The notes beneath the pieces were generated by a model. It had not been told where the DNA came from. It did not search any database and worked only from the letters and a program-made list of their open reading frames with translations. A stretch of 64,000 nucleotides of DNA from Escherichia coli (GTDB lineage: Bacteria > Pseudomonadota > Gammaproteobacteria > Enterobacterales > Enterobacteriaceae): assembly GCF_003790525.1 (NCBI RefSeq), contig NZ_CP033635.1. One strand, given 5' to 3'. A program made the translations under genes and the position numbers. Within the stretch, counting starts at the first letter, position 1. Each line of letters begins with the position of its first letter. Shown here one piece after another: positions 1,200-27,985 of this stretch.

Positions 1200-1650
1200 A
1201 TGCTCAGGTGGCCAAATTCAGTATGCCAGAACCAGAACATCTTGTGGTCAGGCAGAGGAAGAGCAAACTGTTACTGGACTCACTGCATGCGTGGATGGTG
1301 GAGAAAAATGCCACGCTGTCCAAAAATCCAGACTGGGAGAATGGTTCAGCTGTGTACTGAATCAGTGGGGCGCACTCTGTTATTACAGTGTTGACGGTCA
1401 GGCGGAGGCAGACATAATGCCGCGGAAAAAGCCCTTTGTGCCATCTGTCTCGGAAATAAAAACTTTATGTTCTTCGACGGCGAGCGCAGTGCACTGTTGT
1501 ATGGGCTTATCGGCACTTGCCTTCTGAACGACATTGATCCGGAAGAGTATCTGCGCCATATCCTGAGCGTACTGCCGGAATAACCTTCCAACCGTATTGA
1601 TGAACTCCTGCCATGGAACGTAGTTCTCACCAATAAATAAGCATCAATAT
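1200..1650 (+). mobile_element. IS66-family transposase (TnpC) 3' remnant, frameshifted
   Basis: Frames give LLLDSLHAWMVEKNATLSKNP, GNKNFMFFDGERSALLYGLIGTCLLNDIDPEEYLRHILSVLPE and NRIDELLPWNV, matching the C-terminal region of IS66-family TnpC across at least two frameshifts. Confidence 0.5.
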
Positions 1651-1778
1651 GATTCTCCATTAACGCTTACCTTTTCTCAGGCTATTTTTGATTTTTTTTG
1701 CTTTTCCCCGCCACTTTATGGTGATTATCACATCAATATACATCGACAGATATTAACGTAACTGAAGTGAGGTGAAGC

Positions 1779-2993
1779 ATGAAATTTGAACGCCATCATG
1801 AAATATTGAAACGACTCAGTAAATTCGGTTCTGTAAAAGTATCCGATCTGTCCAATAGCCTCAATGTAACGAAAGAAACTATTCGATCAGATCTTAATGA
1901 ACTTGCCAGACTTGGCTATCTGACTCGATGTCATGGCGGTGCTTTTATCGTCCTAGACTCGCTTGATACTATTGCGAAAAATGAAATCGCTTATGCGCTT
2001 GAAAATTATGATACAGCCCAGGGAATAAAAAAAGGCCACTCAACTATGAAAAGTCAAGTATGCGTTATTGGTTCGTTTAATGTTGATATCATCAGTTATT
2101 TGCCGAGGCTTCCCACTATCGGAGAATCGCTTCTGGCAAGTAATTTTATATTTTCACCGGGGGGAAAAGGTTGTAACCAAGCGCTGGCAGCAAGCTTTGC
2201 CGATACTGATGTTTATTTCATAACAAAAGTAGGTACAGATCACTTTAGTGATTATGCGATCAACTTTATGAATTCGTCTAAGATTTATAAAAGTATAATT
2301 TATCAAACGAAAGAAACGCAAACCGGAACTGCCACGATCCTTGTTAATGAAGGTACTGGCGATAATGTTATTGCGATCTATCCCGGTGCCAACATGACAA
2401 TGTCGTCCGATGAAATAACTATTCAGAAAGAAGCGATTATTAATTCTGATGTCATACTTCTGCAGCTCGAAACAAATTATACCGCTCTGCAACAAGCGAT
2501 CACATTGGCGCAAAAAAACAGTATCCCGGTCATTATTAACCCGGCACCCTATAATGATATCGTCAACGAACTTATTCAGGATGTTGATTATATCACCCCC
2601 AATGAAACAGAAGCTGGTTTACTGTCCGGCATAGACGTACACGATCTTGAATCAGCTAAACGAGCTGCAGAAGCTATCCACAATAAAGGGGTAAAAAACA
2701 CGGTTATCACGCTCGGTAGCAAGGGCTCACTCGCATTTGATGGCAAAAAATTCATTCATTCGCCAGCGTTTCCAGCGGTCGTTAAAAATACGGCAGGAGC
2801 CGGGGATGCTTTTAACGGCGCTCTGGCATCAGGACTTGCGAAAGGAAAATCACTGGAATCAGCACTGTGTTATGCCAGTGCCTTTGCATCCCTGGCGGTG
2901 GAGACAAGCAATGCTTCCGACATGCCTGAACATGAATCTGTGATACATCGAATTCAGAGTATACATTATCAGCAAACTATTTTTACGCATTAA
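1779..2993 (+). CDS. DeoR-type HTH domain fused to PfkB/ribokinase-family sugar kinase
   Basis: 404-aa ORF; N-terminus HEILKRLSKFGSVKVSDLSNSLNVTKETIRSDLNEL is DeoR-like; C-terminus has PfkB features (GGKGCNQA, NTAGAGDAFNGALA). Confidence 0.75.
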   Translation: MKFERHHEILKRLSKFGSVKVSDLSNSLNVTKETIRSDLNELARLGYLTRCHGGAFIVLDSLDTIAKNEIAYALENYDTAQGIKKGHSTMKSQVCVIGSFNVDIISYLPRLPTIGESLLASNFIFSPGGKGCNQALAASFADTDVYFITKVGTDHFSDYAINFMNSSKIYKSIIYQTKETQTGTATILVNEGTGDNVIAIYPGANMTMSSDEITIQKEAIINSDVILLQLETNYTALQQAITLAQKNSIPVIINPAPYNDIVNELIQDVDYITPNETEAGLLSGIDVHDLESAKRAAEAIHNKGVKNTVITLGSKGSLAFDGKKFIHSPAFPAVVKNTAGAGDAFNGALASGLAKGKSLESALCYASAFASLAVETSNASDMPEHESVIHRIQSIHYQQTIFTH

Positions 2994-3006
2994 GAAGGGA
3001 CAGAGA

Positions 3007-3765
3007 ATGAATAACACCAAAAAATCACTAAAGGTGCTCTTTATTGGAGAATCCTGGCATATTCATATGATTCATTCAAAAGGATATGACAGTTTTACCT
3101 CAAGTAAATATGAAGAAGGTGCGACCTGGTTACTCCAATGTCTGAAAAATAGTCAGGTAGATGTCACCTATATGCCGGCACATACGGTACAAATTGCCTT
3201 CCCTGAAGATGTGGCACAGTTAGAACAATATGATGCCATCGTTATTAGTGATATTGGTAGTAATACTTTCCTGCTACAAAATGATACTTTTTATCAGCTT
3301 CGCATAAAACCAAACGCTCTCGAACTGATTAAAGAATATGTGAATAACGGTGGTGGGTTATTGATGATTGGCGGCTATCTCTCATTCATGGGAATTGAAG
3401 CAAAAGCCAATTATAAAAATACAGTTCTGGCTGATGTGCTCCCGGTTACGATGTTAGATGGTGACGATCGTGTCGAAAAACCAGAGGGTGTTATTGCACA
3501 GCCATCACAACCTGACCATCCGGTTATTAAAGGGTTCTCTGAATATCCTTTTTTCCTAGGTTATAACCGGGCGATCGCTAAAGAAAATGCTGAGGTGGTA
3601 TTAACAATAAACAACGATCCATTACTGGTCTTTGGTAACTATCACAACGGGAAAATAGCCTGCTTTATGAGTGACTGTTCACCGCACTGGGGTACACAGC
3701 AGTTTATGTCCTGGCCGTTCTATACCGCGTTGTGGGTAAATATACTGACTCATATTGCAAGATAA
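3007..3765 (+). CDS. Class I glutamine amidotransferase-like (ThuA/DUF1355-type) protein
   Basis: 252-aa ORF 14 bp after the upstream gene; motif NNGGGLLMIGGYLSF suggests a GATase1-like fold; family assignment tentative. Confidence 0.55.
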   Translation: MNNTKKSLKVLFIGESWHIHMIHSKGYDSFTSSKYEEGATWLLQCLKNSQVDVTYMPAHTVQIAFPEDVAQLEQYDAIVISDIGSNTFLLQNDTFYQLRIKPNALELIKEYVNNGGGLLMIGGYLSFMGIEAKANYKNTVLADVLPVTMLDGDDRVEKPEGVIAQPSQPDHPVIKGFSEYPFFLGYNRAIAKENAEVVLTINNDPLLVFGNYHNGKIACFMSDCSPHWGTQQFMSWPFYTALWVNILTHIAR

Positions 3766-3821
3766 TAATAATAATGGGGTAACACCAGTTACTCCATTTA
3801 CTATAATAGAAGGATTGATGT

Positions 3822-4787
3822 ATGAAAAAGAATAAGTACTCAACTCCCTTATGGATGCTTGCCACGATTCTTGCGGGTATGCTCTCCCCTATGCAATCAG
3901 CGGTGAATGGTCAATTAGGTCACTGGTTACAGGACGGTAATGCATGCGCAGTTATCTCCTTTGCCAGTGGTTTAGTCGTGATGTTTTTTATTATTATGGC
4001 GCGAAAAGAAACCCGGCAACAATTTGCGGCAATTCCTTCTCTGATTAAAAACCGAAAAGTTCCTCTCTGGAACTGGTTTGCCGGTCTCTGTGGAGCGATG
4101 GTGGTATTTTCTGAAGGCGCATCAGCCAGCGCACTCGGGGTCGCAACGTTTCAGACCGCACTGATCTCCGCGCTATTGCTGTCTGGTTTACTTTGCGATC
4201 GCTTTGGTATCGGTGTCGACGAGAAAAAATACTTTACCCCTTATCGCATCATCGGTGCATTATTTGCGGTTATTGCTACGATTTTTGTTGTGTCACCGCA
4301 GTGGCATTCTACCTCTTTCATTTTACTTGCCATTCTTCCGTTCTTAGCTGGTTTGCTTGCAGGATGGCAGCCCGCTGGAAATGCAAAAGTAGCTGAAGCT
4401 ACGGGATCCATGCTGGTTTCAATCACCTGGAATTTCATCGTTGGATTTTGTGTTTTAGGCACAGCGCTAGCTATTCGTGTCGCATTAGGGCACGTCACTG
4501 TTCAATTACCAGATGTCTGGTGGATGTATCTTGGCGGCCCGCTTGGACTAATGTCTATCGGTTTAATGGCCATTTTGGTCAGAGGTCTTGGGTTACTGAT
4601 GCTGGGGGTTGCTTCAACGGCGGGCCAGTTACTGGGATCAGTATTGATTGACGTATTAATTCCATCGCTGGGCAATACCGTTTATCTGGTCACGATCATC
4701 GGAACACTGTTTGCACTGGTCGGTGCAATTGTTACCACTATTCCGGAATACAGAGCCTCGAAAACAATGAAGAAAATGGAGGTATAA
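3822..4787 (+). CDS. Polytopic inner-membrane protein (tandem DUF606/YdcZ-like, DMT-superfamily-like)
   Basis: 321-aa ORF with about 10 hydrophobic segments and an internal two-fold repeat; RBS-like aggattg upstream. Confidence 0.6.
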   Translation: MKKNKYSTPLWMLATILAGMLSPMQSAVNGQLGHWLQDGNACAVISFASGLVVMFFIIMARKETRQQFAAIPSLIKNRKVPLWNWFAGLCGAMVVFSEGASASALGVATFQTALISALLLSGLLCDRFGIGVDEKKYFTPYRIIGALFAVIATIFVVSPQWHSTSFILLAILPFLAGLLAGWQPAGNAKVAEATGSMLVSITWNFIVGFCVLGTALAIRVALGHVTVQLPDVWWMYLGGPLGLMSIGLMAILVRGLGLLMLGVASTAGQLLGSVLIDVLIPSLGNTVYLVTIIGTLFALVGAIVTTIPEYRASKTMKKMEV

Positions 4788-4789
4788 TC

Positions 4790-5824
4790 ATGAAAGATTA
4801 TCTACAAACTGTGACGGGCCCCGTCGCCCGTGAAGATATGGGGCTAACACTTCCTCATGAACATCTGTTCAACGATCTTTCCTCTGTTGTGGATGCTCCT
4901 TGCTATCCTTTTTCACAACGGCTTGTTGATAAAAAAGTCACGGCAGAAATCCAGTGGGCATTAAAACACGATCCTTATTGCTGCGCTGATAATATGGACC
5001 GCAAACCTATTGAAGATGTGATCTTCGAAATTAATAACTTTATCTCGCTCGGTGGTCGCACCATTGTTGATGCCACAGGGTCTGAGTCTATCGGACGAGA
5101 TGCGCAGGCATTACGAGAAGTCGCATTAAAAACAGGTCTGAATATTGTTGCTTCCTCCGGTCCCTACCTGGAAAAATTTGAAAGCCAGAGAATTCATAAA
5201 ACGGTTGATGAACTAGCGACAACGATCGATAAAGAATTGAATCAAGGGATTGGCGATACGGATATTCGTGCCGGAATGATCGGTGAAATAGGTGTCTCAC
5301 CGACATTTACCGAAGCCGAGCATAACAGCTTGCGGGCTGCCTCGCTGGCACAGATTAACAATCCTCATGTGGCGATGAATATTCACATGCCGGGCTGGCT
5401 TCGTCGCGGTGATGAAGTACTCGACATTGTGTTAGGTGAAATGGGCGTCTCGCCAAATAAAGTCTCTCTCGCACACTCGGATCCGTCAGGAAAAGACGTG
5501 GCGTATCAGCGGAAAATGCTTGATAAAGGTGTCTGGCTGGAATTCGACATGATTGGCCTAGACATTACCTTCCCGAAAGAGGGAATAGCGCCAGGGGTGC
5601 AGGAGACTGCCGATGCCGTCGCTCATCTCATTGAGTTGGGATACGCCGATCAGCTTGTTCTCAGCCACGATGTCTTCCTTAAACAAATGTGGGCTAAAAA
5701 TGGCGGTAATGGCTGGGGATTTGTTCCAGATGTTTTTCTGGCCTATCTGGCGGAGCGCGGCGTCGATAAAACGATCCTCAAAAAACTCTGTATCGATAAT
5801 CCCGGACGATTATTGACCGCATAA
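4790..5824 (+). CDS. Phosphotriesterase-family (PTE/Php-like) metal-dependent hydrolase
   Basis: 344-aa ORF; N-terminal metal-binding motif TLPHEHL typical of the PTE family; starts 3 bp after the upstream gene. Confidence 0.8.
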   Translation: MKDYLQTVTGPVAREDMGLTLPHEHLFNDLSSVVDAPCYPFSQRLVDKKVTAEIQWALKHDPYCCADNMDRKPIEDVIFEINNFISLGGRTIVDATGSESIGRDAQALREVALKTGLNIVASSGPYLEKFESQRIHKTVDELATTIDKELNQGIGDTDIRAGMIGEIGVSPTFTEAEHNSLRAASLAQINNPHVAMNIHMPGWLRRGDEVLDIVLGEMGVSPNKVSLAHSDPSGKDVAYQRKMLDKGVWLEFDMIGLDITFPKEGIAPGVQETADAVAHLIELGYADQLVLSHDVFLKQMWAKNGGNGWGFVPDVFLAYLAERGVDKTILKKLCIDNPGRLLTA

Positions 5825-5856: not shown

Positions 5857-5863
5857 ATGTCAA

Positions 5864-6202
5864 TTAATACCCCGCCGTTAAATCATCCACCAAGCGCGAG
5901 TCGGATGCGCCGTACAACTCACCATCCGACCCAACCATAATGCTTTGCGTGCTGCCCATCGCCTCATTCAGCGCCACTTTCTGACCTTTTGCTTCCAGCA
6001 GCTTGAGCGTATCCGGACTAAACCCTTTTCAACACGCAGCTCGTCCGGCAACCACTGATGGTGGAAACGAGGCGCATTGGTCGCTTCGGCAACATTCATT
6101 CCACAATTGATGCTGTTCACCACCATTTGCGGCACGGTAGTGATGATCCAGCTACCGGTAACAAAGTGAGTACATAAAGGCCATACTGTCACGAACAGTG
6201 CA
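5864..6202 (-). pseudogene. gamma-glutamyltranspeptidase (ggt-like) C-terminal fragment, truncated by ISL3-family insertion and frameshifted
   Basis: Minus-strand translation ...NAPRFHHQWLPDELRVEKG... and ...GSTQSIMVGSDGELYGASD...DDLTAGY-stop matches the GGT C-terminus; N-terminal ~80% is absent. Confidence 0.6.
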
Positions 6203-7936
6203 AAAGTGGCTCTTCCTCAACCTAGGTGAAGATTTTCATGCCAGTGGACTCATTACCCTCCGCCTAAGTAGTTCAAGTCCGGCTCGACCATACATCTGGC
6301 GTATCAGCACCTTCAGGCGATTTACATGACCTTCGACAACACCAGTACTCCAGCGACTGCTGATTGCCTCACATATAGCCGCAGCATCAGCTTCCATCCC
6401 CGCAGCTACGCACCGAAGTTCTGCTGAGCCGCTTTCGTGGACCCGAGTGAACCAGCTGCTTAGCTGTGATTTATTTTAGGTTTTCAGAATACGGTAGAAC
6501 TCGAGTACCAGTTGCTGCGCTATTTTCAACTCCGGTTCTTTTTCACACATCAGACTAATAAATCGGAAAGCATAATTTTCTCCACCCCTGATTATTCTCC
6601 AGGGCATCAACCAGCGGCTTACCCGGGACACTGAAGGAAGTCTTGCGGCAGTAGTAACCGGTGGGATCCAGCCTTTATGCCATTTGGCAACAGCATCCCT
6701 GACGATGGTTTCACTGCCTGTAACCCCCCTGGCCACCATTTCCCGCCATATCCGGCCGGAGTTATAATTACCACATTCTCGTTGCTCTTTTAACCACTCC
6801 CTCCATGGGTCCAGAAGCCCTCGCTTTGGAGGCCTGGTTGACATTTCAGGGAATGTTCCTGAACCCACCCAGCGACTGACTGTCACTCGCGACAGGCCTG
6901 TAATACGGGATATTTCCCTGAAACTACATCCCTTGTTATGCAGGGCCATAACCTCTGTCCAACGCTGATGCCGTTTTTTGCGGATGTGCTGTTTAAGGCG
7001 TTCCAGACGACGGAGCGATGCTACAGGCACAGATATTTCTGGCTCAGGTGATTTCTTCAGTGATAACTCTCTGACAACAAGACGTATCAGAGGCATATGT
7101 CTGTACATCATTCGTTCAGGCTCATCACCAATATTTTTTAGCAGGTGCCATCGATCGGCCACCTGTCTGGCCTGAGGTGCACCTTCACGTGCTGCTGTCG
7201 CATAGACTCCACTGCGATCACGCGAGACAACCTGTATTTCCGGATATTTTCTGAACCAGGTCGCCAGCGTACGCTGATCACGGCCGGGAAGCAGGACGAG
7301 GGGACGGTGAGTATCAGGATTGACTATTAACATACCGCAGCAGTGGCCCCGATGCCACGCCCACTCATCAATACCGACATGAGGCGCGCCTGACTGTTTC
7401 GTCTCCGGGGTATTGATAAGCCTGCGAAGAAGAGTATCAGCACTGCAACGGAGACCCACTGCCGTTGCAGCCCGTTTTCCAGCCTCACCTCCAGCTATTA
7501 ATCCCAGTTGACATTGTTAATTTTGTAACGCCTGTGAAGACTGCTGGTGTGAACTGGCGAAGGGAGCAAGCGACTCGGCAAAAATTTTACGTGAACAAGC
7601 CGGGTTACGGCAGTACCAGTGGCGGACGGAAAATACAAGCCATAGCGTCTGCCCTGAGCAGGGTAGATGCTGTATCCGGCGCCGACGACAACTATGAACA
7701 GAGTCGCTACGCTTAAAGCATTCAGGACATTGTGCTGTTTTGCGTTTTCCGTGGAGATGGAGGGTTATACCGTCAGAGCTAATAATTTGTCGACTGCATC
7801 GCCATCCGCAAGGTAACTGTAGAAGTGTCTTAAGAGAGTGCATTGCGTTGCCCATAACTTAAAACAGCTTAGATCCTTGTTCGCCAGAAAGTTTCATCCA
7901 TTTTCTTCCACCCAGGTTGCGGAAGAACCACTTTTC
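6203..7936 (-). mobile_element. ISL3-family insertion sequence (~1.73 kb) with ~30-bp imperfect terminal inverted repeats
   Basis: Left end aaaagtggctcttcctcaacctaggtg versus reverse complement of right end aaaagtggttcttccgcaacctgggtg (3 mismatches); internal ISL3-type transposase. Confidence 0.6.
6215..7855 (-). pseudogene. ISL3-family transposase, disrupted by at least two frameshifts
   Basis: Zn-finger N-terminus (7855-7517), DDE core GIDEWAWHRGH...SRDRSGVYATAAREGAPQARQVADRWHLLKN (7459-6476), and C-terminal STGVVEGHVNRLKVLIRQMYGRAGLELL in a third frame (about 6300-6215). Confidence 0.6.
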
Positions 7937-8546: not shown

Positions 8547-8941
8547 ATTTCCTCCTGAGTTGTCCGGGGAATACTGAATCCTCCGGTCTGGCAGTGTGTG
8601 CAGTACCGCTCCCCATAATAATCGTGGTGACATTGTCTGCAGTGCCAGCTGGCTTTACGCACCACGGGTAAGGCATCCGGTACGAATTGCTGCAGACGTT
8701 TAATCAACTGTATTTCTCTGCGCTCCGGCCTGACATAAGGGCACTGTTGACCGTGCTCTGTCAGCCTGTCGTCAGTGTGTTCAAACCAGGGAAGTTCAGT
8801 GTCGTATTGCGGATGGTATCTGAGTGCACTGCCACACAAGTGGCAGGTGTAGTTAGCATAAGGTGCGGCCTGTGCAGTACGGGCGCCCGTCAGACGTCCG
8901 TTGCCATCAAGAGCGATAAAGGATTTTGCGTACATAGTCAT
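8534..8941 (-). CDS. Cys-rich zinc-ribbon protein, hypothetical
   Basis: 135-aa ORF with CHLCG, CRQCH, CTHCQ pairs and a PWFEH motif. Confidence 0.5.
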   Translation of the reverse strand: MTMYAKSFIALDGNGRLTGARTAQAAPYANYTCHLCGSALRYHPQYDTELPWFEHTDDRLTEHGQQCPYVRPERREIQLIKRLQQFVPDALPVVRKASWHCRQCHHDYYGERYCTHCQTGGFSIPRTTQEEICEF

Positions 8942-9194
8942 ATTCCTCAGCCGCCAGACGACACGCAGGCAACAGCCGTCCCGGTACGGGCAGCGTGGTC
9001 AGGGTGTGAATGGCGGTTCAGTTAAAATCTGGACTGGAGTTTGGGTAAAGCAGGCTGGTTGCTGTTACAGCACTGTGGTTGTCACACAATGGAACACTGA
9101 CGTAAAAAACAGTCAGTGGGCGAGTGGATACATCGTTGCCGCCAGACAACAACCCATACTTTTGGTTTGCCGGGTATTGGCGCGCCAGTCGTGC

Positions 9195-10164: not shown

Positions 10165-11117
10165 GATAACGGTTCATGTATCCCCTGAGCTGACAGTGTA
10201 CCGGGTATATTAAGCGTAACCGACAGGTTCTCCTTCATACCATATTAAATTTTTCCAGGTATTGCCGCTGCCTTATTTCGTCCCATACAGGAAAACTCGT
10301 CTGGGTTTCTGACAAATACGCGAAACTCACAGCCCCTCAATATCAACCACACGCTGTAAGCCGGTAATACCTGAAAATCAGCCTATTACCGCCCGCGCCT
10401 CCGTTACCGAACGCTCAGGTGACCAGACTGAAGCCCAGCACGCACTCGTAAAATTTGCGGTCAGTTCCGTCAGTCAGTGGGCAACCGCAGAGTTACGGGC
10501 TTCCAGGTCCACAGGAGTGAGTCTATAACGCGTGTGGGAAATCATTTTTTCTGGCGTTGACAGAACGCCTTACGGGCTGCTACTTACCCGGTGTCCCGCA
10601 ATACAGCCTTAGTGTTCCGTTATCGGGGATCCGGACGCACCGCAACAACCGGGGAAGTATTTCTGGTTAGAGCTGTGTCAAGAGGGATTTCTCAGCCCCT
10701 CACTCACCGGCTCAGTCTCAGGGCAGAAGCATTAATACACTCAGTTCATGTCTTATACAGGAATGGGCATAGGGGGAGCTGGCGTGTCACTGCTGATTTT
10801 ACGCATCAGCGTTCATGTATCTGCACTCTGATACAGAATGCTTCACAGCGCTCTGTTACCGGAGAGATTTACTCTCTTAGGTTATTCTGGCAAATCCTTT
10901 ACGTTACTCTCTGATGACTTCTTATATTTATAATACCAATCAGACAACCTTATCCCATCGGTGATATCAGTCTCCTGCTCGCCAGGAACGGGCTGACTCA
11001 CTGTAACCACCTCCGAAAACAACTCTGCAATTATCAGAACGCCTGCTTCTCTCCCTGTCCTCACGAAAACTATCCCCTCTTTATCGCGCGTGCGTGCGGA
11101 AGCATCTTTTCGCAACA

Positions 11118-11130
11118 CCCCCCCCCCCCC
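11118..11130. repeat. Homopolymeric C13 tract
   Basis: 13 consecutive C residues, about 165 bp upstream of the alpA-like start. Confidence 0.9.
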
Positions 11131-11294
11131 GGGATTCCGCTACGGCTCTGCCATCGCAATCCCCCCGTTTATCTCCGGACAGCCACATTCCCGATTATTT
11201 TTTACGTTTCTCCCCGGTTGTTATGCCGGTGAAGGTGGCGCGCTGTTTTCATGACCACACCGGCTGGTTTAACAACATCCGGAGGAACATTCTC

Positions 11295-11501
11295 ATGGCT
11301 ACCCCAGTTTCGCTGATGGATGACCAGATGGTCGACATGGCGTTTATCACTCAACTGACCGGCCTAACCGATAAGTGGTTTGACAAACTCATCAAAGATG
11401 GGGGCTTTCCTGCGCCCATCAAAATGGGGCGCAGCTCCCGCTGGCTGAAAAGTGAAGTGGAAGCCTGGCTGCAGGCGCGTATTGCACAGTCCCGTCCGTA
11501 A
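11295..11501 (+). CDS. alpA: AlpA-family prophage transcriptional regulator
   Basis: 69-aa product MATPVSLMDDQMVDMAFITQLTGLTDKWFDKLIKDGGFPAPIKMGRSSRWLKSEVEAWL matches the AlpA/Phage_AlpA HTH family; ggagg RBS 8 nt upstream. Confidence 0.7.
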   Translation: MATPVSLMDDQMVDMAFITQLTGLTDKWFDKLIKDGGFPAPIKMGRSSRWLKSEVEAWLQARIAQSRP

Positions 11502-11579
11502 TTTTTAACCACTAACCCTTCGCCCACAGCAGACGCAATCTCCGGCCTGCCGGCGGCGCTCTGCTGCCTGTTATCCCCC

Positions 11580-12197
11580 GTGAGGAATATGAAAATGAAA
11601 CAACAGTATCAGACCCGTTACGAGCTGCTCCATGAAAACTACCAGAAATGGCTGACCGGCTTCACCCGGCACGCCGTATCATGGGGCGTGTGTCATCCGA
11701 ATATCTACTATTTCCATAATCTGACGCCCGGGTGGGTGTCATTCAATGGCGAAAAACCGGAGATTGCCATCGTTCCCCAGAGTCTGCACCGGCTGATTTA
11801 TGGTCCGGACAAACGGAGCTCCCCGTCCCTGGATGATGATCTGGTGGTGAATTTATGCACCAGCGAACACCTGCTGGTTCATCATCCGATGCTGGAAGGG
11901 ATCCTGCTGTCTGAATGTGAGCGCCTGAAGCAACATTCTCTGGCAAACAAACTGATCAGCCTCTTCCGTCAGTTTGGCGGCACGGAGTTACGTCTCAAAC
12001 TGGTCTGGCTCTGCTGGCTTGACTTAATGACCGGAAACAGCCTTGACGACTGGACGAAAAACCTGAAACACAAATCAGAAAAAGATCTGGAGCAATGGAT
12101 CATTGCACGTCAGGGTCAGAGTGAACCACTGACAAATCTGATGGATCAGTACGTGCTTATGGCATACCGTACATCGGTTGATGCCGCTCACAGTTGA
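11580..12197 (+). CDS. Hypothetical prophage protein
   Basis: 205-aa ORF 78 bp downstream of the alpA-like gene, same strand; no family recognised; start ambiguous among several Met codons. Confidence 0.5.
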   Translation: MRNMKMKQQYQTRYELLHENYQKWLTGFTRHAVSWGVCHPNIYYFHNLTPGWVSFNGEKPEIAIVPQSLHRLIYGPDKRSSPSLDDDLVVNLCTSEHLLVHHPMLEGILLSECERLKQHSLANKLISLFRQFGGTELRLKLVWLCWLDLMTGNSLDDWTKNLKHKSEKDLEQWIIARQGQSEPLTNLMDQYVLMAYRTSVDAAHS

Positions 12198-12739
12198 TGT
12201 CTGAGAACCACAGGGCTGGCAGCAGAAAACCAGCCCTGTGGTAAAATACAGTAATAGCGGCGTACATCAGGCACGCCGCTCACTCGTCCACAGATCATAT
12301 ACGTCATTATACTGCGCGATAACGGAGGGCTTCAGCACCCGGTCATTTCTGAGCGGGTATGAATACCATTGATGATGCGAAGCAGCCACGTGCAGAAACG
12401 TTCTTCACAACCAGGTGCCTCCATCTTCACTGCAGTCTGAATGTGCCGGCTTGTTATCCACCAGAAATGGTATGCTCCGGTACATGCATACCCCGGAGAC
12501 TATAAACGCACTGAATCATAGCCTCCCACCTCAGCAGGAGGCAGTCAGCTTTCAGGCGGAAAAACGTTGCAGTTAAAGATCGTGAGAATCGCTGTTTCGT
12601 TGCATAGCAACCCGAACAGTTGTAGTGAAACATTTTACCTGCATCAGCACATGGTCAGGCGCCGTCTGTATGGCGTGGAATACTGATGTTTCGGCTGATG
12701 GCAAGCCTCATTCTGTACTGACCCCAAAAAGTTGGACAG

Positions 12740-13591
12740 TTAAACACGAGGCATATAGGTCTGATTCCGATATTCAATTGGAGTCAGACTTTTTAATTTC
12801 AGGCTAATTCTTCTGCTGTTGTAGTATTCAATATATTCCGTAACAGCATCCTTCAGTTCGCTTATATTACTGAACTCATCAAGATAAAAACACTCCGACT
12901 TTAAGGTTCCAAAGAAACACTCCACCACAGCATTATCCAGACAATTGCCTTTTCTGGACATGCTTTGTTTAATACCATGTTCTTTAAGAATATTTTGATA
13001 TTTTCTCATACGATACTGCCATCCCTGGTCAGAGTGCAGAACAGGATGCTCGTGAGGATTAAGCTTTTTGAATGCCTGATCGAGCATATTCTCAACCATG
13101 TTCATCACTGGTCTTTCCGAAAGGCTGTAAGAAATAACTTCGTTGTTGAAGAGATCTATTACTGGAGACAAATACAGCTTGCGCCCATTGACTGCAAATT
13201 CAGTAACATCGGTAACCCACTTCTCGTTTGGCCGCGTAGCCTTGAAATCTCTTTGGAGAACATTAGGGGCGGTTTGCCCTACCTCTCCTCTGTAAGAGCG
13301 GTATCGCTTGACCTTAATCGCTGCTTTAAGTGAGAGGGTTCCCATCAGGCGCTGAACAGCTTTATGGTTAATCTGTTTCCCTTCTCGATGAAGAGACAGC
13401 GTTACCCTACGGTATCCGTATCGGCCTCTATTCTCGTGATAAATCTCACCAATACGCTTTTTAACGTCCGCATACTTGTCAGGCTTGCTGAGAGCCTTTA
13501 GATGGTAATAAAACGTACTGCGCGGTATCTCCGCAGCCCTGAGAAGCTCATCAAGAGGATAAAACTGCCTTAGCTCGTTGAGTACTTTCAC
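12740..13591 (-). CDS. insK: IS150 transposase OrfB (InsK)
   Basis: 283-aa IS3-family DDE transposase; overlaps insJ by 4 bp as expected for the -1 frameshift fusion. Confidence 0.9.
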
Positions 13592-14109: not shown

Positions 14110-14439
14110 ATCAGGGGCTATTCCATTTCATCGTCCAACAAAATGGGTGCAGTACATTCTCTGTGGAAACAGGGGCGCGCATTAGCTTCTCAACCAGAGA
14201 GTGTCACAAAGACAAATATTGCTGAAAATCGCATTCATCGTTCAGGCGTGAATGCCCGGAGACAAAAGCCGCTGTCCACACAGTCCCCCTCTGACCTGAA
14301 CAAAAAGCATACACACAACAGGCTCACCTGACCCCGAAAAACCATAACTTCAGCAATACCAGTGACACCAGCACGTTACCTCAGTGCCACATCTTCAGAC
14401 CGCGATCAATCTGAAATGTGACTATCGGGGCAATATCCC

Positions 14440-14720
14440 TGCTTTGTGGTACACGATAACCAGAAAACATCCCCTGAACCGCCAGCCAGAAAGACTGGCC
14501 ACAAAAGGGGTAAGCTGAAATCGTTTATGGATTACATCGACATATGCCTGGCAGAGAATGTCCGGAATGACGAGGTTATCTTTGCGGAGATTAAGGCAAT
14601 GGTATACGGGCCGACGTTCCATGCCGCGTTACTACATTCAGCCCGGACGTAAAATGCGCCCGTCAAAAAGAACGGTTCGCTTCGAAACTCAGCCAGGATA
14701 CCACCTCTCCGCCACACCCG
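14440..14720 (+). pseudogene. IS21-family istA 5' remnant
   Basis: Frames give EPPARKTGHKRGKLKSFMDYIDICLAENVRNDEVIFAEIKAMVYG and RYYIQPGRKMRPSKRTVRFETQPGY, matching the IstA N-terminus with a frameshift and loss of the rest. Confidence 0.5.
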
Positions 14721-16024
14721 GGAAGAAGTTGATATGGTGGTTGCCGGACAACAGCGCTCCTGGATTGACTGCTGCATCACTCAACCACGCTGAATATCAA
14801 AGGAGAGCGTTACCGGTTAAAAGAGAAACGTAAAGCTGTGGTGATGACCCAAAACGCAACGCCTGTCAGTGAGGATGAAATGGTGAAAAGCGGACAGCAT
14901 CAGTAACGGAAGTATCTTAGCGGGTACGAAAATGGCAGGATCGTGACATTGACAGAATATCTCCTGATCATCCTGAATGACTGCAGTTGCTGTAGAAAAG
15001 TAAGCTGTCTCCACCCACGGCACCACTTAACAGGCATTCCGTAACTTCCCCCAGACTTACTATGACGCATTATCGGTGCACTGAAAACGGGAGAGTGCGC
15101 TTAAAACCGCAGACCGCATGCGGGTGTTACTGCATGACAGTCTGGCCGTATTGTGAGATGTCGGCAGGAACCGATGTCCGCGCAGGGGGGAACTTCCTGC
15201 AGTACCTGACGCTTCAAATGGTATTAACCGTAGGGTGTTGTTGGTTCCGGATCGCGGAAATGGGAGCACAGGTCTGCTACGGGGTGTACCTCTGACAGTA
15301 AATCCGGCTCGCTCATCTGACAGCCTCTCTCCCGGAAAAGACCAAAAATGAGATCGTCTCCTCAACAGCAGAGAAGAGGTCTTGACAGACAGGCTACATT
15401 GCATACGATTTATGAAGAAAAAGACAGCAAATATGGAGGTTATAGCGGAGAATACCCTACGAAATTCCTATGAAAAACGATTGAAAAAAATATCAAATTC
15501 GATTCGTTTTTATATGCTTTTTGGGAGCGTGGCGATGACGAACTGTTGCATGTGCAGAGGAGAATGCACCCGGAAGCACCAGAATCATCCAGAAAGGCAG
15601 AACGATTACGCATCAAACCAGGAGACAGCAATATCAAGGTAATATACTGATTTAAAATGAATTTACAGCAATACGTGAAAACATTTTTTACTTAAAGGAG
15701 ACAGATGCGCTGAAGAGAGTGCAGGTATTTTTATATAAAAATGAGAAGTTTACGGGATGTATATCCGGCACACTATGACCGGAGAATATCAGTCAAGCTT
15801 AAAAAGACAATAAATACAGTGAGTTAAATACACAGAGAAAACGTAGTATCAGAGGGTACATCTTACAACAGAGACTGAATTTCCGGTTTTTCATAACCGG
15901 CGCATTCCGGAAAGTGCAGGCGGCCCGGAGGTTTTCTGACGCCACTACCTGGTAGATTGTTCTGTACATCATGTACGGAGGTTTTTGTTTGCTTTTTTAA
16001 AATCTGCAAATGTGAGAAAAGCAG

Positions 16025-17271: not shown

Positions 17272-18144
17272 ATGAATCCGTCTGATGCCATTGAGGCAAT
17301 TGAAAAACCGCTCTCCTCCCTGCCTTACTCACTTTCCCGTCACATCCTGGAACATCTGCGCAAACTCACCAGTCACGAACCCGTGCCTGGCATTATGGGT
17401 AAAAGCGGGGCCGGTAAATCCTCACTCTGTAATGCGCTGTTTCAGGGGGAGATCACCCCGGTCAGTGATGTTCACGCCGGCACCCGGGAAGTGCAGCGCT
17501 TCCGTCTGAATGGCCATGGTCACAGCATGGTTATCACTGACCTGCCCGGGGTGGGCGAGAGCCGGGACAGGGATGCAGAGTATGAAGCCCTGTACCGTGA
17601 CATTCTGCCCGAACTGGACCTGGTACTGTGGCTGATTAAAGCCGATGACCGTGCCCTGTCTGTGGATGAGTATTTCTGGCGACACATCCTGCACCGGGGA
17701 CATCAGCGGGTACTGTTTGTGGTGATGCAGGCCGATAAAACGGAGCCCTGCCATGAATGGGATATGGCCGGTATTCAGCCTTCTCCCGCACAGGCACAGA
17801 ACATTCGCGAAAAAACGGAGGCGGTATTCCGTCTGTTCCGGCCCGTACATCGGGTTGTTGCCGTATCGGCCCGCACCGGCTGGGAACTGGATACGCTGGT
17901 CAGTGCGCTCATGACAGCACTTCCCGACCATGCCGCCAGTCCCCTGATGACCCGCCTGCAGGACGAGCTGCGCACGGAATCTGTCCGCGCTCAGGCCCGT
18001 GAACAGTTTACCGGTGCGGTGGACCGGATATTTGACACGGCGGAGAGCGCCTGTATTGCCTCTGTTGCACGCACGGTTCTGCGTGCCGTCCGTGACTCGG
18101 TGGTCTCTGTTGCCCGCGCGGTATGGAACTGGATTTTCTTCTGA
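17272..18144 (+). CDS. YeeP/YfjP/YkfA-family prophage GTPase, apparently intact
   Basis: P-loop GKSGAGKSSLCNALF and G3 DLPGVGES; family recalled from CP4-44/CP4-57/CP4-6; start set at the ATG giving MNPSDAIE (ORF extends upstream to a GTG). Confidence 0.8.
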   Translation: MNPSDAIEAIEKPLSSLPYSLSRHILEHLRKLTSHEPVPGIMGKSGAGKSSLCNALFQGEITPVSDVHAGTREVQRFRLNGHGHSMVITDLPGVGESRDRDAEYEALYRDILPELDLVLWLIKADDRALSVDEYFWRHILHRGHQRVLFVVMQADKTEPCHEWDMAGIQPSPAQAQNIREKTEAVFRLFRPVHRVVAVSARTGWELDTLVSALMTALPDHAASPLMTRLQDELRTESVRAQAREQFTGAVDRIFDTAESACIASVARTVLRAVRDSVVSVARAVWNWIFF

Positions 18145-18261
18145 ACCCGGTGGTGATGTACCAGGCTGTTGTTACAGATTTTTAACTCCATGAAAACACT
18201 ATGCAAACGCAGCCATACCCGGGTTGTCCCCTTGCGTTGTGTTTCTCAAGTTAATAGAATG

Positions 18262-21660: not shown

Positions 21661-22727
21661 GTACAGAAATGAAAACGGGGCTGGTGCTGTCCGGTGGCGG
21701 GGCGGTGGGCGCTTATCAGGCGGGAGTGGTTAAGGCACTGGCAGAGTGTGGTACACAGATCAGCATGGTTTCAGGGGCCAGCATTGGCGCATTCAATGGT
21801 GCCATTATCGCGGCCTCTACCGATCTGTCAGAAGCTGCCGTACGCCTGGAGGCGCTCTGGGATCATCTGGGGAATAATCAGGTGCTGTCGGTAAACAGAT
21901 TGGTTTACTTTTCATTGCTGAAAAAATTGTTCCAGGCAATGAACCTCTGCCAGATCCCCGGACGTGCAGGAGCACTGCTTACGACGCTTCTTCGCCATAT
22001 ATCGACAATCAACGGGTTTGACAATCTGATGGCTCAGCCGTTGTTGTCAGATGAGCCCCTGACAGCGCTGATGGATCATTATCTTGATACTGATGCTCTG
22101 GCAGACGGGCTACCGCTGTATGTGTCGCTGTACCCCACAGAAGGGGGCATGCAGGATATTATTGACTGCATTCGTGCTGAACTGGGTGTCGGAACCACGA
22201 AAAACGCCGTTTTTCAGCATATCCAGAGCCTGCCCCGCGGACAGCAGAAAGAGGCTCTGCTTGCGTCAGCCGCGCTGCCCCTGCTGTTCCGTCCCCGTGA
22301 GGTTCAGGGGACAATGTTCGGTGATGGTGGTATGGGAGGATGGCGAAATATGCAGGGAAATACCCCTGTGACGCCTCTGGTCGATGCCGGATGCAATATG
22401 GTGATTGTGACGCATCTGAGTGACGGTTCTTTATGGGATCGCCAGGCTTTTCCGGACACCACAATCCTTGAGATCCGTCCCCGGAAAAGGCTGAAATATG
22501 CAGGTGATGGTGGCAACAGCGGCGGTCTGCTCAGTTTTACATCGGCACATACCGACGCCTGGCGTCAGCAGGGCTATGAAGACACGATGCTGGCGATGGA
22601 GCATATCCGGAAACCGCTGGCAGCACGTCAGGCACTGACCCGGTCAGAGGCGGTATTGCAGAAAAGCCTGGATATAACGGAAGAGGCAGATTTGGCACTG
22701 AGAAACGCGATGGCCCGGATTAAATAA
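21657..22727 (+). CDS. Patatin-like phospholipase
   Basis: 356 aa; Gly-rich oxyanion SGGGAVGAYQAG, lipase GxSxG as GASIG, catalytic Asp in FGDGGM; ATG overlaps the upstream stop (ATGA). Confidence 0.85.
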   Translation: MSTEMKTGLVLSGGGAVGAYQAGVVKALAECGTQISMVSGASIGAFNGAIIAASTDLSEAAVRLEALWDHLGNNQVLSVNRLVYFSLLKKLFQAMNLCQIPGRAGALLTTLLRHISTINGFDNLMAQPLLSDEPLTALMDHYLDTDALADGLPLYVSLYPTEGGMQDIIDCIRAELGVGTTKNAVFQHIQSLPRGQQKEALLASAALPLLFRPREVQGTMFGDGGMGGWRNMQGNTPVTPLVDAGCNMVIVTHLSDGSLWDRQAFPDTTILEIRPRKRLKYAGDGGNSGGLLSFTSAHTDAWRQQGYEDTMLAMEHIRKPLAARQALTRSEAVLQKSLDITEEADLALRNAMARIK

Positions 22728-22743
22728 AGACGCCCCAAAGAAA

Positions 22744-22770
22744 CGCCACCGCCTGTGGTGGTGTTTTTCC
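22744..22770 (+). terminator. Putative rho-independent terminator after the patatin gene
   Basis: ccacc-gcctgt-ggtgg hairpin followed by tgttttt, 17 bp after the patatin stop. Confidence 0.5.
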
Positions 22771-23057
22771 TGTCTGGTGTTATTGAAAATATTTTCAGAT
22801 ATATATTACCTGAGAGAAAGTTTTACCCCTCACCTGTCAATTCACTCACTGGAAATTTAATTATGAAATTACCTGTAAAGTTATTAATGAGCCTTATATC
22901 TCTGGTCAGCGTTATTGCACGTGCCGGGGAATATAAAAATTACAGCCGGGATGAAATAAAATACTGGCGATATACATCATACAAGGGGGGGAAACTTCCG
23001 GAAGGTTTCACTGATGAGAAATTTTCCAGCGCCATTTACAACGGAAGAATATTTACA

Positions 23058-23546
23058 ATGAAACGTTTACATACCCTTATGTTATTTCTGGCGGTTCTGT
23101 TCACGGGCTTTAACTTTAACGCAGAAGCGGCTACCGTAAAACAAGCTCTTAGTTGTAACCCGGAAGCCTGGGCTGAACAACCTGGAGCGTGTCCATCAAC
23201 GTACGAGTTGTACGAAGGTGACGCTACCTACAAAGCCGCTATCGACAAAGCATTAAAACCGGTCGGACTGAGCGGCATGTTCGGTAAAGGCGGCTATATG
23301 GATGGCCCTGGTGGAGGTATCACGCCAGTAAACATTAACGGTACAGTCTGGTTCCAGGGCGACGGTTGCAAAGCCAATACCTGCGGCTGGGACTTTATCG
23401 TAACACTCTATAACCCAAAAACCCATGAAGTTGTTGGCTACCGTTACTTTGGTTTAGATGACCCGGCCTACCTGGTTTGGTTCGGTGAAATTGGCGTGCA
23501 TGAATTCGCGTATCTGGTGAAAAACTACGTAGCTGCGGTTAACTAA
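23058..23546 (+). CDS. Ivy-like (inhibitor of vertebrate lysozyme family) periplasmic protein, divergent
   Basis: Signal peptide MKRLHTLMLFLAVLFTGFNFNAEA; KAA...KGG...CKANTCGWDFIV aligns with Ivy KAA...KGG...CKPHDCGSQRIAV as recalled; an in-frame upstream ATG at 22863 also precedes a hydrophobic stretch. Confidence 0.5.
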   Translation: MKRLHTLMLFLAVLFTGFNFNAEAATVKQALSCNPEAWAEQPGACPSTYELYEGDATYKAAIDKALKPVGLSGMFGKGGYMDGPGGGITPVNINGTVWFQGDGCKANTCGWDFIVTLYNPKTHEVVGYRYFGLDDPAYLVWFGEIGVHEFAYLVKNYVAAVN

Positions 23547-23561
23547 TTTAAGGAGTCTATC

Positions 23562-24148: not shown

Positions 24149-24192
24149 ATTTATTGCACCAGTAAATCTTAACCACCGATAAGGAGCAAAGT

Positions 24193-25013: not shown

Positions 25014-25094
25014 TGCCGTTTCCCTGAGTGAGGGAATCATTCAGCTTTCGTTCCTGAAAAACACACATTTATTTGTTATTTAAGGAGTTATCTC

Positions 25095-25574: not shown

Positions 25575-25589
25575 ATGGAGAGAAGCACA

Positions 25590-26066: not shown

Positions 26067-26128
26067 CCCGTCACAACCACATCACACCTGTTTTCACTTT
26101 TATCTTCTGTCTTCAGAGGTATCCCATT

Positions 26129-26350: not shown

Positions 26351-26423
26351 GTGGGAATTCTGATGAGCAGAATTATCGCCACTACCGGACCATTCTTAGC
26401 CGATTTTCTGTAAGGATTTTATC

Positions 26424-26792
26424 GTGTCAGACACACTCCCCGGGACAACACTTCCCGACGACAATCACGACCGCCCCTGGTGGGGGCTGCCCTGCACCGT
26501 GACGCCCTGTTTCGGGGCACGTCTGGTGCAGGAGGGTAACCGCCTGCATTACCTTGCCGACCGCGCCGGTATCAGAGGCCTGTTCAGCGATGCAGATGCG
26601 TACCACCTGGACCAGGCCTTTCCGCTGCTGATGAAACAACTGGAACTCATGCTCACCAGCGGTGAACTGAATCCCCGCCATCAGCATACCGTCACGCTGT
26701 ATGCAAAAGGGCTGACCTGCAAAGCCGATACCCTCAGCAGTTGTGGTTACGTTTATCTGGCTGTTTATCCGACGCCCGAAATGAAAAATTAA
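26424..26792 (+). CDS. cbeA: Type IV antitoxin CbeA (YeeU)
   Basis: 122 aa MSDTLPGTTLPDDNHDRPWWGLPCTVTPCFGARLVQEGNRLHYLADRAGIRG... matches CbeA as recalled. Confidence 0.9.
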   Translation: MSDTLPGTTLPDDNHDRPWWGLPCTVTPCFGARLVQEGNRLHYLADRAGIRGLFSDADAYHLDQAFPLLMKQLELMLTSGELNPRHQHTVTLYAKGLTCKADTLSSCGYVYLAVYPTPEMKN

Positions 26793-26880
26793 CTCTCCAG
26801 AATAGCCTTCTGCTACGGCCTGGTGTTTTCACCACGCCACTTTTCCATTTTTATATCTGCATATCAGGAAAATCTTCAGT

Positions 26881-27254
26881 ATGAAAACATTACCTGTATT
26901 ACCCGGGCAGGCGGCCAGTTCTCGCCCGTCTCCTGTTGAAATCTGGCAGATACTGCTGTCCCGACTGCTGGACCAGCACTATGGCCTCACACAGAATGAC
27001 ACACCTTTTGCCGATGAACGTGTGATTGAGCAGCATATTGAGGCAGGCATTTCACTGTGTGATGCGGTGAACTTTCTCGTGGAAAAATACGCGCTGGTGC
27101 TACCGACCAGCCGGGATTCAGCGCCTGTACCCGCTCTCAGTTAATAAACAGCATCGATATCCTCCGGGCTCGCAGGGCGACCGGCCTGATGACCCGCGAC
27201 AATTACAGAACGGTAAATAACATTACCCTGGGTAAGTATCCGGAGGCGAAATGA
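26881..27254 (+). pseudogene. cbtA: Toxin CbtA (YeeV), frameshifted
   Basis: First 73 residues match CbtA, then the frame ends at 27144; the expected C-terminus INSIDILRARRATGLMTRDNYRTVNNITLGKYPEAK is in another frame (27150-27254); consistent with a single-base deletion near 27103. Confidence 0.8.
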
Positions 27255-27445
27255 TGACACTGGAAGCCGACAGCGTTAACGTACAGGCGCTGGATATGGG
27301 GCACATTGTCGTTGACATTGATGGTGTTAATATCACTGAACTGATTAATAAGGCCGCTGAAAACGGTTATTCACTCCGCGTGGTGGATGACCGTGACTCT
27401 ACCGAAACACCGGCAACTTATGCCAGCCCTCACCAGTTGCTGTAA
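27251..27445 (+). CDS. yeeW: YeeW-like small protein
   Basis: 64-aa ORF overlapping the cbtA stop, in the position of K-12 yeeW. Confidence 0.45.
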   Translation: MMTLEADSVNVQALDMGHIVVDIDGVNITELINKAAENGYSLRVVDDRDSTETPATYASPHQLL

Positions 27446-27850
27446 GACAATGCAGTGATGCAGGGTATAGTGCCATTAACCACAGAAACAGCACTGTTGT
27501 CCTGTATTAAGCAGGCAAGAGAAGATGTCCTTACCCTGCGCCATCTGCAGCTTCTGCACCAGAACCGGTGAATCTCACTCAACAGGCTTCATTTCCCCTG
27601 ACGCCAGCCTGAATACAGCTGGCGTTTTCATTTATAAACAGAAAGGAAAACCGATAATAATGGAATGGACGCCCCGACCATGAAGCAACGGTAGGATATT
27701 ACTGATAAACCTTCCAGTGGAGGTGCGTTATGGCCGTTTTAACGATTAGCATTGACCTGACAAAAAATGAATTCCAAATCCACGGTCTGGGTAGGAACAG
27801 AAAAATCTAAGCTCAGAAAACGGATTAAAGTAAGCGTCAACGGAGCACCA

Positions 27851-27985
27851 TATTGACGCTTATTTATTGGTGAGAACTACGTTCCATGGCAGGAGTTCGT
27901 CAACACGGTTGGAGGGCCATTCCGGCAGTATGCTCAGAATATGGCGCAGATACGCTTCCGGATCGATACCGTTCAGACGGCAGGT
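27851..27985 (-). mobile_element. IS66-family terminal remnant (~135 bp), inverted relative to the 1200-1650 copy
   Basis: About 88% identical by eye to the reverse complement of 1515-1650 (ttatttattggtgagaactacgttccatggcaggagttc...). Confidence 0.45.

Follow-up and report, generated by a model that had tools for sequence, protein, structure and literature searches.

Two inverted IS66-family relics bordering the cobU–tmaR variable region in Escherichia coli, very probably left by independent insertions of different elements

The DNA analyzed here is a stretch of 64,000 nt (the window) that comes from E. coli SMS-3-5 and includes its cobU–tmaR variable region, the CP4-44 locus. This region occupies the place of a cbi–pdu cluster: a cbiP fragment adjoins cobU on one side, and a relic of pduV forms the border on the other. 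Two fragments of IS66-family insertion sequences (ISs), called here the left and right arms, lie at its edges. Both were already annotated as IS66-family pseudogenes, the right one being yoeD of K-12. The genes of the metabolic islet beside the left arm encode a DeoR-HTH/ribokinase-like PfkB kinase, a glutamine amidotransferase, a DMT transporter, and a phosphotriesterase-related protein. The first of these genes, with NCBIfam matches to ribokinase and an AgaR-type HTH, begins at 1779, 108 nt past the left tip, which is flanked by CTTTTCTC. The junction between the islet and the following CP4-44-like island consists of a fragment of ggt with a dead ISL3 element (~5860-7855). Coordinates of the features are listed in Table 1.

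Table 1. Features at the two edges of the variable region (window coordinates)
Feature	Position	Strand	Basis or remark
Degenerate IS3-family DNA	268..1231	-	RefSeq pseudogene: transposase, frameshifted, internal stop
Left arm, 3' 439 nt of an IS66-family element	1232..1670	+	tnpC codons ~397-537 and right inverted repeat
Right inverted repeat (IRR) of left arm, ~28 nt	1643..1670	+	ends …CCATTAACGCTTAC; aligns to ISEc23, IS682, and ISEc47 ends
8 nt beside left tip, CTTTTCTC	1671..1678	.	read from sequence
Metabolic islet beside left tip	1779..5824	+	RefSeq annotation, ORFs
First 100 nt of decayed IS110-family transposase gene	27730..27829	+	target of right-hand IS66 insertion
Target octamer GGATTAAA beside right tip	27822..27829	.	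empty-site comparison
Right arm, last 159 nt of an ISEc23/ISEc47/IS682-type IS66 element	27830..27988	-	tnpC codons ~493-537 and IRR
Spacer common to pre-insertion allele	27989..28059	.	deletion junction with IS66 interior at 27988/27989
pduV relic (K-12 yoeF), PduV residues 87-147	28060..28242	+	right border of variable region

A repeat search of window positions 1-30000 returned a single outstanding inverted pair, 1512-1673 and 27827-27988 (162 nt, 88% complementary), and the runner-up pairs were at most 34 nt long at 71-78%. When the left region was compared with the whole 64-kb window by BLAST, the second copy was the sole match (88.3%, 19 mismatches, 0 gaps, E 2.3e-55). Counted within the IS-derived DNA, the arms were identical at 141 of 159 positions (88.7%). 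The repeat search and BLAST thus confirmed the inverted pair of IS66 termini described in the original prediction. Both arms end in true IS66-type tips, …GCTTAC at 1670 and GTAAGC… at 27830, and as had been predicted the two tips point into the intervening segment, an interior of 26,159 nt. Intact ISEc23, IS682, and ISEc47 terminate at …GACGCTTAC, and both arms terminate at the identical base, which is also where the 8-bp target duplications of IS682 and ISEc47 are located. Because the arms stop at the terminus of the intact element, they represent the same part of it, the 3' end of tnpC with the right inverted repeat.

The alignment to IS66-family references, which had been proposed as a check, set the exact termini at 1670 and 27830 and corrected the extents given earlier. 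The left copy had been placed at 1200-1650 and is 1232-1670, positions 1200-1231 being the tip of an IS3-family element. The right copy had been placed at 27851-27985 and is 27830-27988, the terminal 21 nt including the inverted-repeat tip having been missed. Both arms carry fragments of the TnpC DDE transposase (PF03050, the PF13817 C-terminal domain, NF033517), and both retain the right terminal inverted repeat (5'-GTAAGCG…). Compared with ISEc23, ISEc47, and IS682, which are active in Enterobacteriaceae, both arms have lost the left inverted repeat along with tnpA, tnpB, and the bulk of tnpC. With full ISEc23 as the BLAST query, just ISEc23 2081-2532 (left arm) and 2374-2532 (right arm) were found in the window, and neither arm has tnpA and tnpB upstream of tnpC; both are relics. 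Target duplications of 8 bp are known for the relatives IS682 (TCTTTCTC), ISEc47 (GAAGACGC), and the P50 element (GATTTGTA).

The left arm, the more decayed of the two, is dead, with two 1-nt deletions, one 12-nt deletion, and a TGG-to-TAA stop. In tblastn it was spread over three frames against residues 394-537 of ISEc23 TnpC with 69-81% amino-acid identity, and it matched the NCBIfam profile NF033517 (transpos_IS66, E 9.5e-24) at profile positions 272-385 of 387; its homologues bear PF03050 and PF13817. It is homologous to the same region of ISEc23, ISEc47, and IS682 as the right arm, and its tip shares their …ACGCTTAC end, but its identity to these intact elements was just 81-83% over 445 nt (83% to ISEc23 and IS682, 80.6% to ISEc47) and 87-89% over the 159 nt. 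No intact copy of this lineage was found in 5,426 E. coli genomes (best match outside the locus ~84%) or in PLSDB (83.5%). The 24-nt left-type tip ATATGATTCTCCATTAACGCTTAC was absent from the 100,044 species-representative genomes scanned; as this tip is kept in all left-arm variants compared, the result means that the exact tip is absent from representative genomes, and no more. In a protein search with the repaired C-terminus of the left-arm TnpC, the matches listed were short or partial proteins alone, with at most 81% identity at full coverage, and an intact relative may exist outside E. coli. On these comparisons the left arm represents an unnamed member of the IS66 family, which may be extinct. 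Identical lesions were present in all three allele variants of the left arm that we examined, and one variant (L015) showed 8 differences clustered within the last 35 nt of the arm. Part of the 17% divergence from living elements may be due to post-mortem decay or gene conversion. A tnpA'/tnpB fragment with similar divergence (84%) lies 13.4 kb outside the window edge in the source genome, at 1114180-1114856 of NC_010498.1. This fragment and the left arm may be halves of one extinct IS66 that were parted by incoming metabolic islets.

The junction of the left arm with the PfkB flank was contiguous and identical in 1,974 genomes; the flank was never found without the left arm. The octamer CTTTTCTC would be the surviving copy of the target duplication, its partner having been lost. 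On its outer side the left arm is cut at 1231/1232 by an IS3-family element, whose left-end (IRL-side) tip adjoins the IS66 fragment. Homology with variant genomes breaks at the same position, and an intact IS3-family element in L006 aligns at 90% from window ~1228. According to BLAST, the degenerate IS3-family DNA is probably two remnants: an IS911-like orfA/orfB' pseudogene lies at 471-1161, and ~268-470 resembles an IS2-type end. The reading of 268-1231 as one IS3-family element was rejected, as clean terminal inverted repeats were sought there and none were found. In another strain, the IS110-like ISSso6 is located 4 nt within the inverted repeat of the left arm.

The right arm matches the last 159 nt of ISEc47 (97.5%), ISEc23 (95.6%), and IS682 (95.0%) with the same end base, and it is 98.7% identical to a plasmid copy of IS66. 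It is too short for an HMM match and was assigned by its 95-98.7% DNA identity to intact tnpC 3' ends. Over its full length it is 99.4% identical to the K-12 copy, and this level is kept across most E. coli. The K-12 pseudogene yoeD, with yoeF, gave a 162-nt match at the same locus, with the DUF957'/yeeW end of the island on one side and the EutP/PduV fragment by tmaR on the other, and does not differ materially from the right arm. The complete right junction was found in 3,183 of the 5,426 genomes and was identical among them. A longer 'right arm' in strain MSB2_1A was rejected because it is an unrelated IS66 fragment elsewhere in that genome.

The insertion site of the right arm could be read directly from an empty-site allele. 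In two genomes (L013 and L015), the sequence of 27730..27829 runs unbroken into an IS110-family pseudogene of 1,029 nt, so that …AAAACGGATTAAA/CGTTCCCTG… of the empty site corresponds to …AAAACGGATTAAA/GTAAGCGTC… of the window. The uninterrupted IS110 site, …GGATTAAA/CGTTCC…, is kept in 633 complete genomes together with a longer spacer and the pduV relic. The right arm was inserted in situ into this decayed IS110-family gene. On the other side of the arm, the window from 27989 aligns to L013 from 7642 (98.6%), and the 159-nt arm stands in place of 1,311 bp of L013 (6331-7641). We regard the empty-site allele as ancestral because 1.3 kb present there is missing from the majority allele; in principle it could be a replacement. 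Through a later deletion, the arm is fused to spacer that starts 71 nt before the pduV relic (yoeF). The relic matches TIGR02528 (EutP/PduV, E 6e-11). E. coli EC93 carries a complete pdu operon with full-length pduV as its last gene at the yoeF position, 100 bp from tmaR, and the homology of its pduV to the window begins at 28060 (98% DNA and 93% amino-acid identity). We found no description of the pre-insertion IS110 allele or of the deletion junction of yoeD in the searchable literature. This dead IS110 gene was struck by two different IS66-family members, 135 bp apart.

As one stretch of 159 nt of the element is present in both arms, they are not halves of one IS that was split by an insertion. 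In this respect the original prediction holds, and its proposal of two separate IS66-family insertions in inverted orientation, later eroded, is also supported. Its description of the arms as the same terminus is correct for the part of the element and incorrect for the family member: identity to the intact ends was 95.0-98.7% for the right arm and 87-89% for the left arm, a difference of 6-10 points for each intact reference. Alignment to different IS66-family members or to different parts of the element had been named as the result that would speak against it, and the first of these was found and the second was not. Two copies are considered the same IS in ISfinder from roughly 90% DNA identity (or 95% amino-acid identity); with 88.7% the arms do not count as one IS in this sense, and the 81-83% of the left arm to ISEc23, ISEc47, and IS682 also lies below this level. 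FDAARGOS_944 carries the left arm together with islet and island, and its right site is intact, with no right arm. K-12, in turn, has the right arm and lost the left arm by a ~17-kb deletion, whose scar fuses window 283-473 to window 17592-18147. Therefore, the arms are independent. In P24_WM1, neither arm is present and the islet–ISL3–island junction is retained. This junction, built of ggt and ISL3 and not of IS66, was found in L014 and L015, where the right IS66 never inserted; the idea that the IS66 pair joined the islet to the prophage remnant is thus not borne out.

Inward-facing tips are also what inverted copies of one IS66 would show if they had carried the ~26-kb segment in as a composite transposon and then lost their outer halves. 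The position of the arms agrees with this, the left one lying ~240 bp from conserved cobU-side backbone in variant genomes and the right one at the pduV-side border. We consider such an origin extremely unlikely, however, because the arms are different members at 88.7% identity, the outer ends and the flanking duplication are both absent, and FDAARGOS_944 has the entire interior with the left arm alone. In addition, the IS110 relic targeted by the right IS was already beside the same island, uninterrupted, in the 633 genomes above. Across genomes, the cargo occurred with the left arm alone, with neither arm, or in part with the right arm alone. It is next to inconceivable that one arm was made from the other by segmental duplication or gene conversion within the island. 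The survival of the same 159 nt in both would fit such copying, but the right arm shares far more with free-living elements (97.5-98.7%) than with its left counterpart (88.7%), and its end is a bona fide IS tip in a target with a known empty site.

Homologous recombination between the arms could have flipped the interior and given the present gene order, as they offer 159 nt of inverted homology with a longest perfect run of ~41 nt, near the minimum for RecA-dependent exchange. Such an inversion would create chimeric junctions, the body of the left arm being followed by TTTAATCC… and that of the right arm by CTTTTCTCAGG…. We judge this history very improbable. No chimeric mismatch pattern was seen. 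At the right tip, the IS110' flank represents the original insertion junction, and the junction of the left tip with PfkB does not vary among its 1,974 genomes. The right arm, with 99.4% identity to its K-12 counterpart, has unchanged flanks on both sides in genomes without the left arm. All four of the genomes in which both arms were located share the orientation, with a spacing of 26-28.5 kb. Deletion by homologous recombination is impossible between inverted repeats, and the outer truncations have other causes: on the left an IS3-family element inserted, and on the right an illegitimate deletion occurred. In K-12, where the left arm is missing, the right arm and both of its junctions are unaltered, and the suggestion that the pair drove inversion or deletion is not supported. 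No sign of inversion or composite-transposon behaviour was found in the genomes compared. A known case of IS66-mediated rearrangement is pAt15955 of Agrobacterium, where homologous recombination between intact, near-identical IS66 copies in direct orientation deletes the flanked DNA and leaves one copy with hybrid flanks, the 8-bp flanks being diagnostic (PMC6778807). IS66-family copies flank a large segment in both cases, but the present arms are inverted, 11% divergent, truncated, and occur independently.

We concluded that the arms are very probably dead relics of two different IS66-family ISs, which reached the edges of the cobU–tmaR region by independent transpositions at separate times. 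A single ancestral event for each arm is suggested by the junction identical in 1,974 genomes on the left, by that in 3,183 genomes on the right, and by the lesions common to the left-arm variants. Identities, junctions, the empty site, and the combinations of alleles were observed directly. How the deletions arose and in which order the events occurred are inferred, the order from a handful of inspected genomes and allele counts, and recombination could have spread or replaced alleles. An older IS66 member would have come to lie so that 108 nt separated its right end from the PfkB islet. Its tnpC would then have been interrupted at 1231/1232 by an IS3-family element, the upstream part would have been lost or rearranged, and the remaining 439 nt would have decayed. 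Later, an element of the ISEc23/ISEc47 type would have entered the IS110-family gene, by then decayed, after GGATTAAA at the end of the island nearest tmaR. An illegitimate deletion would then have taken the remaining IS66, the remaining IS110 relic, and ~380 nt of spacer, joining the 159 nt to DNA that begins 71 nt before the pduV relic and giving yoeD–yoeF of K-12, the present majority allele. In the K-12 lineage, the additional ~17-kb deletion would have taken the left arm together with the islet.

The inverted 'bracketing' is thus a by-product of the pile-up of ISs at island borders and has no present function. As the two ISs landed separately at the edges of a variable island, their pairing is ordinary debris and not a mechanism, and the pair itself has little weight beyond bookkeeping. 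For genome scans, same-family IS fragments at island edges are expected debris, and the distribution of alleles should be checked before a mechanism is proposed. What the analysis adds is a clean pre-insertion allele, the IS110 relic, and an exact deletion junction for yoeD–yoeF. It also shows that yoeF consists of the final 61 codons of pduV, exactly where the pdu operon sits in pdu-positive E. coli, and that CP4-44 of K-12 derives from the longer arrangement in the window by a ~17-kb deletion. A more general reading, which we hold to be possible though rather doubtful, is that decayed ISs at both cobU–tmaR borders act as recurrent landing pads and that the edges change by nested IS-in-IS insertion and deletion. 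The IS3-family element cutting the left IS66 fits this reading, as do the two IS66-family strikes on the dead IS110 gene, the ISSso6 copy within the left-arm repeat, and the possible splitting of one extinct IS66 into the left arm and the tnpA'/tnpB fragment. If it is true, IS66- and IS110-family elements would have a site preference for other IS relics.

A repeat search of the first 30 kb of the window found a single standout inverted pair, 1512-1673 and 27827-27988 (162 nt, 88%), and all remaining inverted pairs were 34 nt or shorter. When the left region was searched by BLAST against the complete window, only this second copy came back (E 2.3e-55). We aligned both fragments, the left and right arms, to intact ISEc23, IS682 and ISEc47 from other E. 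coli genomes. Each arm was the extreme 3ʹ end of tnpC with the right inverted repeat, and its last base was the last base of the intact elements (…GACGCTTAC). IS682 and ISEc47 have 8-bp duplications at the element end, matching the length reported for IS66 duplications (PMC6778807). The two tips point towards each other across 26,159 nt. Repeat search, BLAST and alignment to family references thus confirmed the original observation of inverted IS66-family termini facing the interior, with the coordinates corrected to the exact IS-derived spans in the table. Both relics were already annotated, and this kind of feature is well known. The coordinate sums against NC_010498.1 were 1,101,972 at the left end of the segment and 1,101,970 at the right, indicating a net 2-nt indel between the window and the RefSeq record somewhere between 1700 and 27600.

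Coordinates of features in the window and in the comparison records
Feature	Window	Comparison record	Remark
Window		SMS-3-5 (NC_010498.1) ~1,038,000-1,101,970	minus strand
Piece on plasmids	1-1983	p399-2 (L009) 10802-12783	99.5%
IS2-like end	~268-470
IS911-like pseudogene	471-1231
K-12 scar, left piece	283-473	K-12 (L003) 23017-23207	191 bp, 99.5%, just left of left arm
K-12 scar, yeeP piece	17592-18147	K-12 (L003) 22464-23019	3ʹ part of yeeP
Left arm	1232-1670
ISSso6 insertion	1666/1667	FDAARGOS_944 (L015) 14360-15876
Metabolic islet	1779-5824		adjoins left arm
IS110-family transposase gene start	27730-27829	uninterrupted-site allele (L013) 6231-7259	heavily decayed; 100 nt before right arm
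Right arm	27830-27988
pduV relic (yoeF)	28060-28242	EC93 pdu record (L016) 8740-9183	EC93 homology begins at 28060
P50 IS66-family element		P50 (L012) 6466-7382
tnpAʹ/tnpB fragment		L002 14181-14857 (NC_010498.1 1114180-1114856)
Isolated IS66 tip		L002 23778-23816	39 nt

The two arms had been taken for the same IS66-family terminus. Over the shared 159 nt, the right arm was 95.0-98.7% identical to four references and the left arm 87.4-89.3% (plasmid-borne IS66 copy, 98.7% and 88.7%, respectively; ISEc47, 97.5% and 87.4%; ISEc23, 95.6% and 89.3%; IS682, 95.0% and 88.7%), and the idea that they are copies of one element was rejected on this difference. The left arm reached only 80.6-83.1% over its full 445 aligned nt, and the arms were 88.7% identical to each other. 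Judged by this identity pattern, the arms derive from two distinct IS66-family members and cover the same portion of the element. The left arm is the older and more decayed of the two; two 1-nt deletions, one 12-nt deletion and an in-frame stop are common to its three allele variants. Away from this locus, no copy closer than ~84% was found among 5,426 complete E. coli genomes and 72,556 plasmids, and its 24-nt tip was absent from 100,044 species-representative genomes.

On the left, IS66 homology begins at 1232-1233 and the alignment of an intact IS3-family element reaches ~1228, so an IS3-family insertion cut tnpC there. The adjacent DNA (268-1231) seems to consist of two IS3-family remnants; variant-2 genomes have only the IS2-like piece (~89-91% identity), fused exactly at 1232. 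The junction of the left tip with the PfkB flank was contiguous in 1,974 genomes, and the flank was never found without the arm, which points to one ancestral event. In two variant genomes (L010 and FDAARGOS_944) the left arm and the conserved cobU–cbiPʹ–IS4ʹ backbone are ~240 bp apart, while in SMS-3-5 more islets (aspA, dgo and others) lie between them. In FDAARGOS_944 the IS110-like ISSso6 is inserted 4 nt inside the inverted-repeat tip, and eight differences from the window copy, clustered in the last 35 nt, may be a short conversion tract. An IS66-family fragment holding tnpAʹ, tnpB and the beginning of tnpC (ISEc23 262-942) was found 13.4 kb past the window edge, with orientation and ~84% divergence like those of the left arm. 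The two may be halves of one element that the aspA, hypT and dgo islets now separate. An isolated IS66 tip was also found in that record.

The right arm is the K-12 pseudogene yoeD, flanked on one side by the yeeW/DUF957ʹ end of CP4-44 and on the other by the EutP/PduV fragment yoeF, which adjoins tmaR. The complete right junction was present in 3,183 of the 5,426 genomes. In some genomes the match to the island-side flank ends at 27829; beyond this point, two of them (L013 and FDAARGOS_944) carry a heavily decayed 1,029-nt IS110-family gene, then a spacer, then the pduV relic. This uninterrupted allele, found in 633 complete E. coli genomes, holds 1.3 kb that the K-12-type allele is without, and represents the locus before yoeD arose. 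At the empty site …AAAACGGATTAAA is followed by CGTTCC…, and the window has …AAAACGGATTAAA followed by GTAAGCG… at the insertion point. Past the arm, the window from 27989 aligns to L013 from 7642, so the 159-nt arm replaces 1,311 bp. These alignments show that an ISEc23/ISEc47-type element inserted into the IS110 relic; a deletion afterwards took away what was left of both the IS66 and the IS110 relic, together with some of the spacer. P50 has a different IS66-family member, ~70% identical to ISCro1 and reduced to 918 bp by internal deletion, in the same dead IS110 gene, 135 bp downstream of where yoeD inserted. It has GTAAGC at both ends and is flanked by an 8-bp duplication (GATTTGTA), so an IS66-family element hit this gene a second time, independently.

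The arms might have been the ends of a composite transposon, but they occur independently, which excludes it. SMS-3-5 has both; FDAARGOS_944 has only the left arm, with the islet, ggtʹ-ISL3ʹ and the island present and the right site uninterrupted; K-12 has only the right arm; and P24_WM1 has neither, its left part having been removed by an IS3 and an adjacent deletion, with the islet–ISL3–island junction kept. Inversion through the arm pair, also proposed, found no support, as both arms were located in four genomes in a common orientation with a spacing of 26-28.5 kb. Nor was there support for the pair having joined the islet to the island, because that junction consists of a ggt fragment and a dead ISL3. 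What stands of the original interpretation is two separate, eroded, inverted IS66-family insertions, not of the same member and with no demonstrable role in rearrangement; the order of events is inferred from few genomes and allele counts.

The islet encodes an unusual 404-aa protein in which a DeoR/AgaR-type HTH is fused to a ribokinase-like PfkB kinase; the next genes are for a glutamine amidotransferase, a DMT transporter and a phosphotriesterase-related protein. In several genomes the islet carries internal stops. A chromosomal piece of the island, comprising the aspA end, IS3-family debris, the left arm and 313 bp of PfkB flank, is captured on plasmids: the IncF/IncI plasmid p399-2 (CP084536.1), where it is accompanied by upstream dgo/hypT/aspA islets and stops at an IS1, and NZ_AP022088.1, AP026488.1 and NZ_CP128940.1.

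In K-12 the 191 bp from just left of the left arm run straight into the 3ʹ part of yeeP, a deletion scar of ~17 kb in which the left arm and islet are gone; K-12 CP4-44, with its truncated yeeP, thus looks like a deletion derivative of the window arrangement. EC93 possesses a complete pdu operon, whose final gene, a full-length pduV, lies 100 bp from tmaR, precisely where the window has yoeF. From the start of EC93 homology, yoeF corresponds to PduV residues 87-147, the last 61 codons of pduV. At the opposite side of the region lies a cbiP fragment adjoining cobU. Therefore, the whole CP4-44-type variable region occupies the place of the cbi–pdu cluster in pdu-positive strains.
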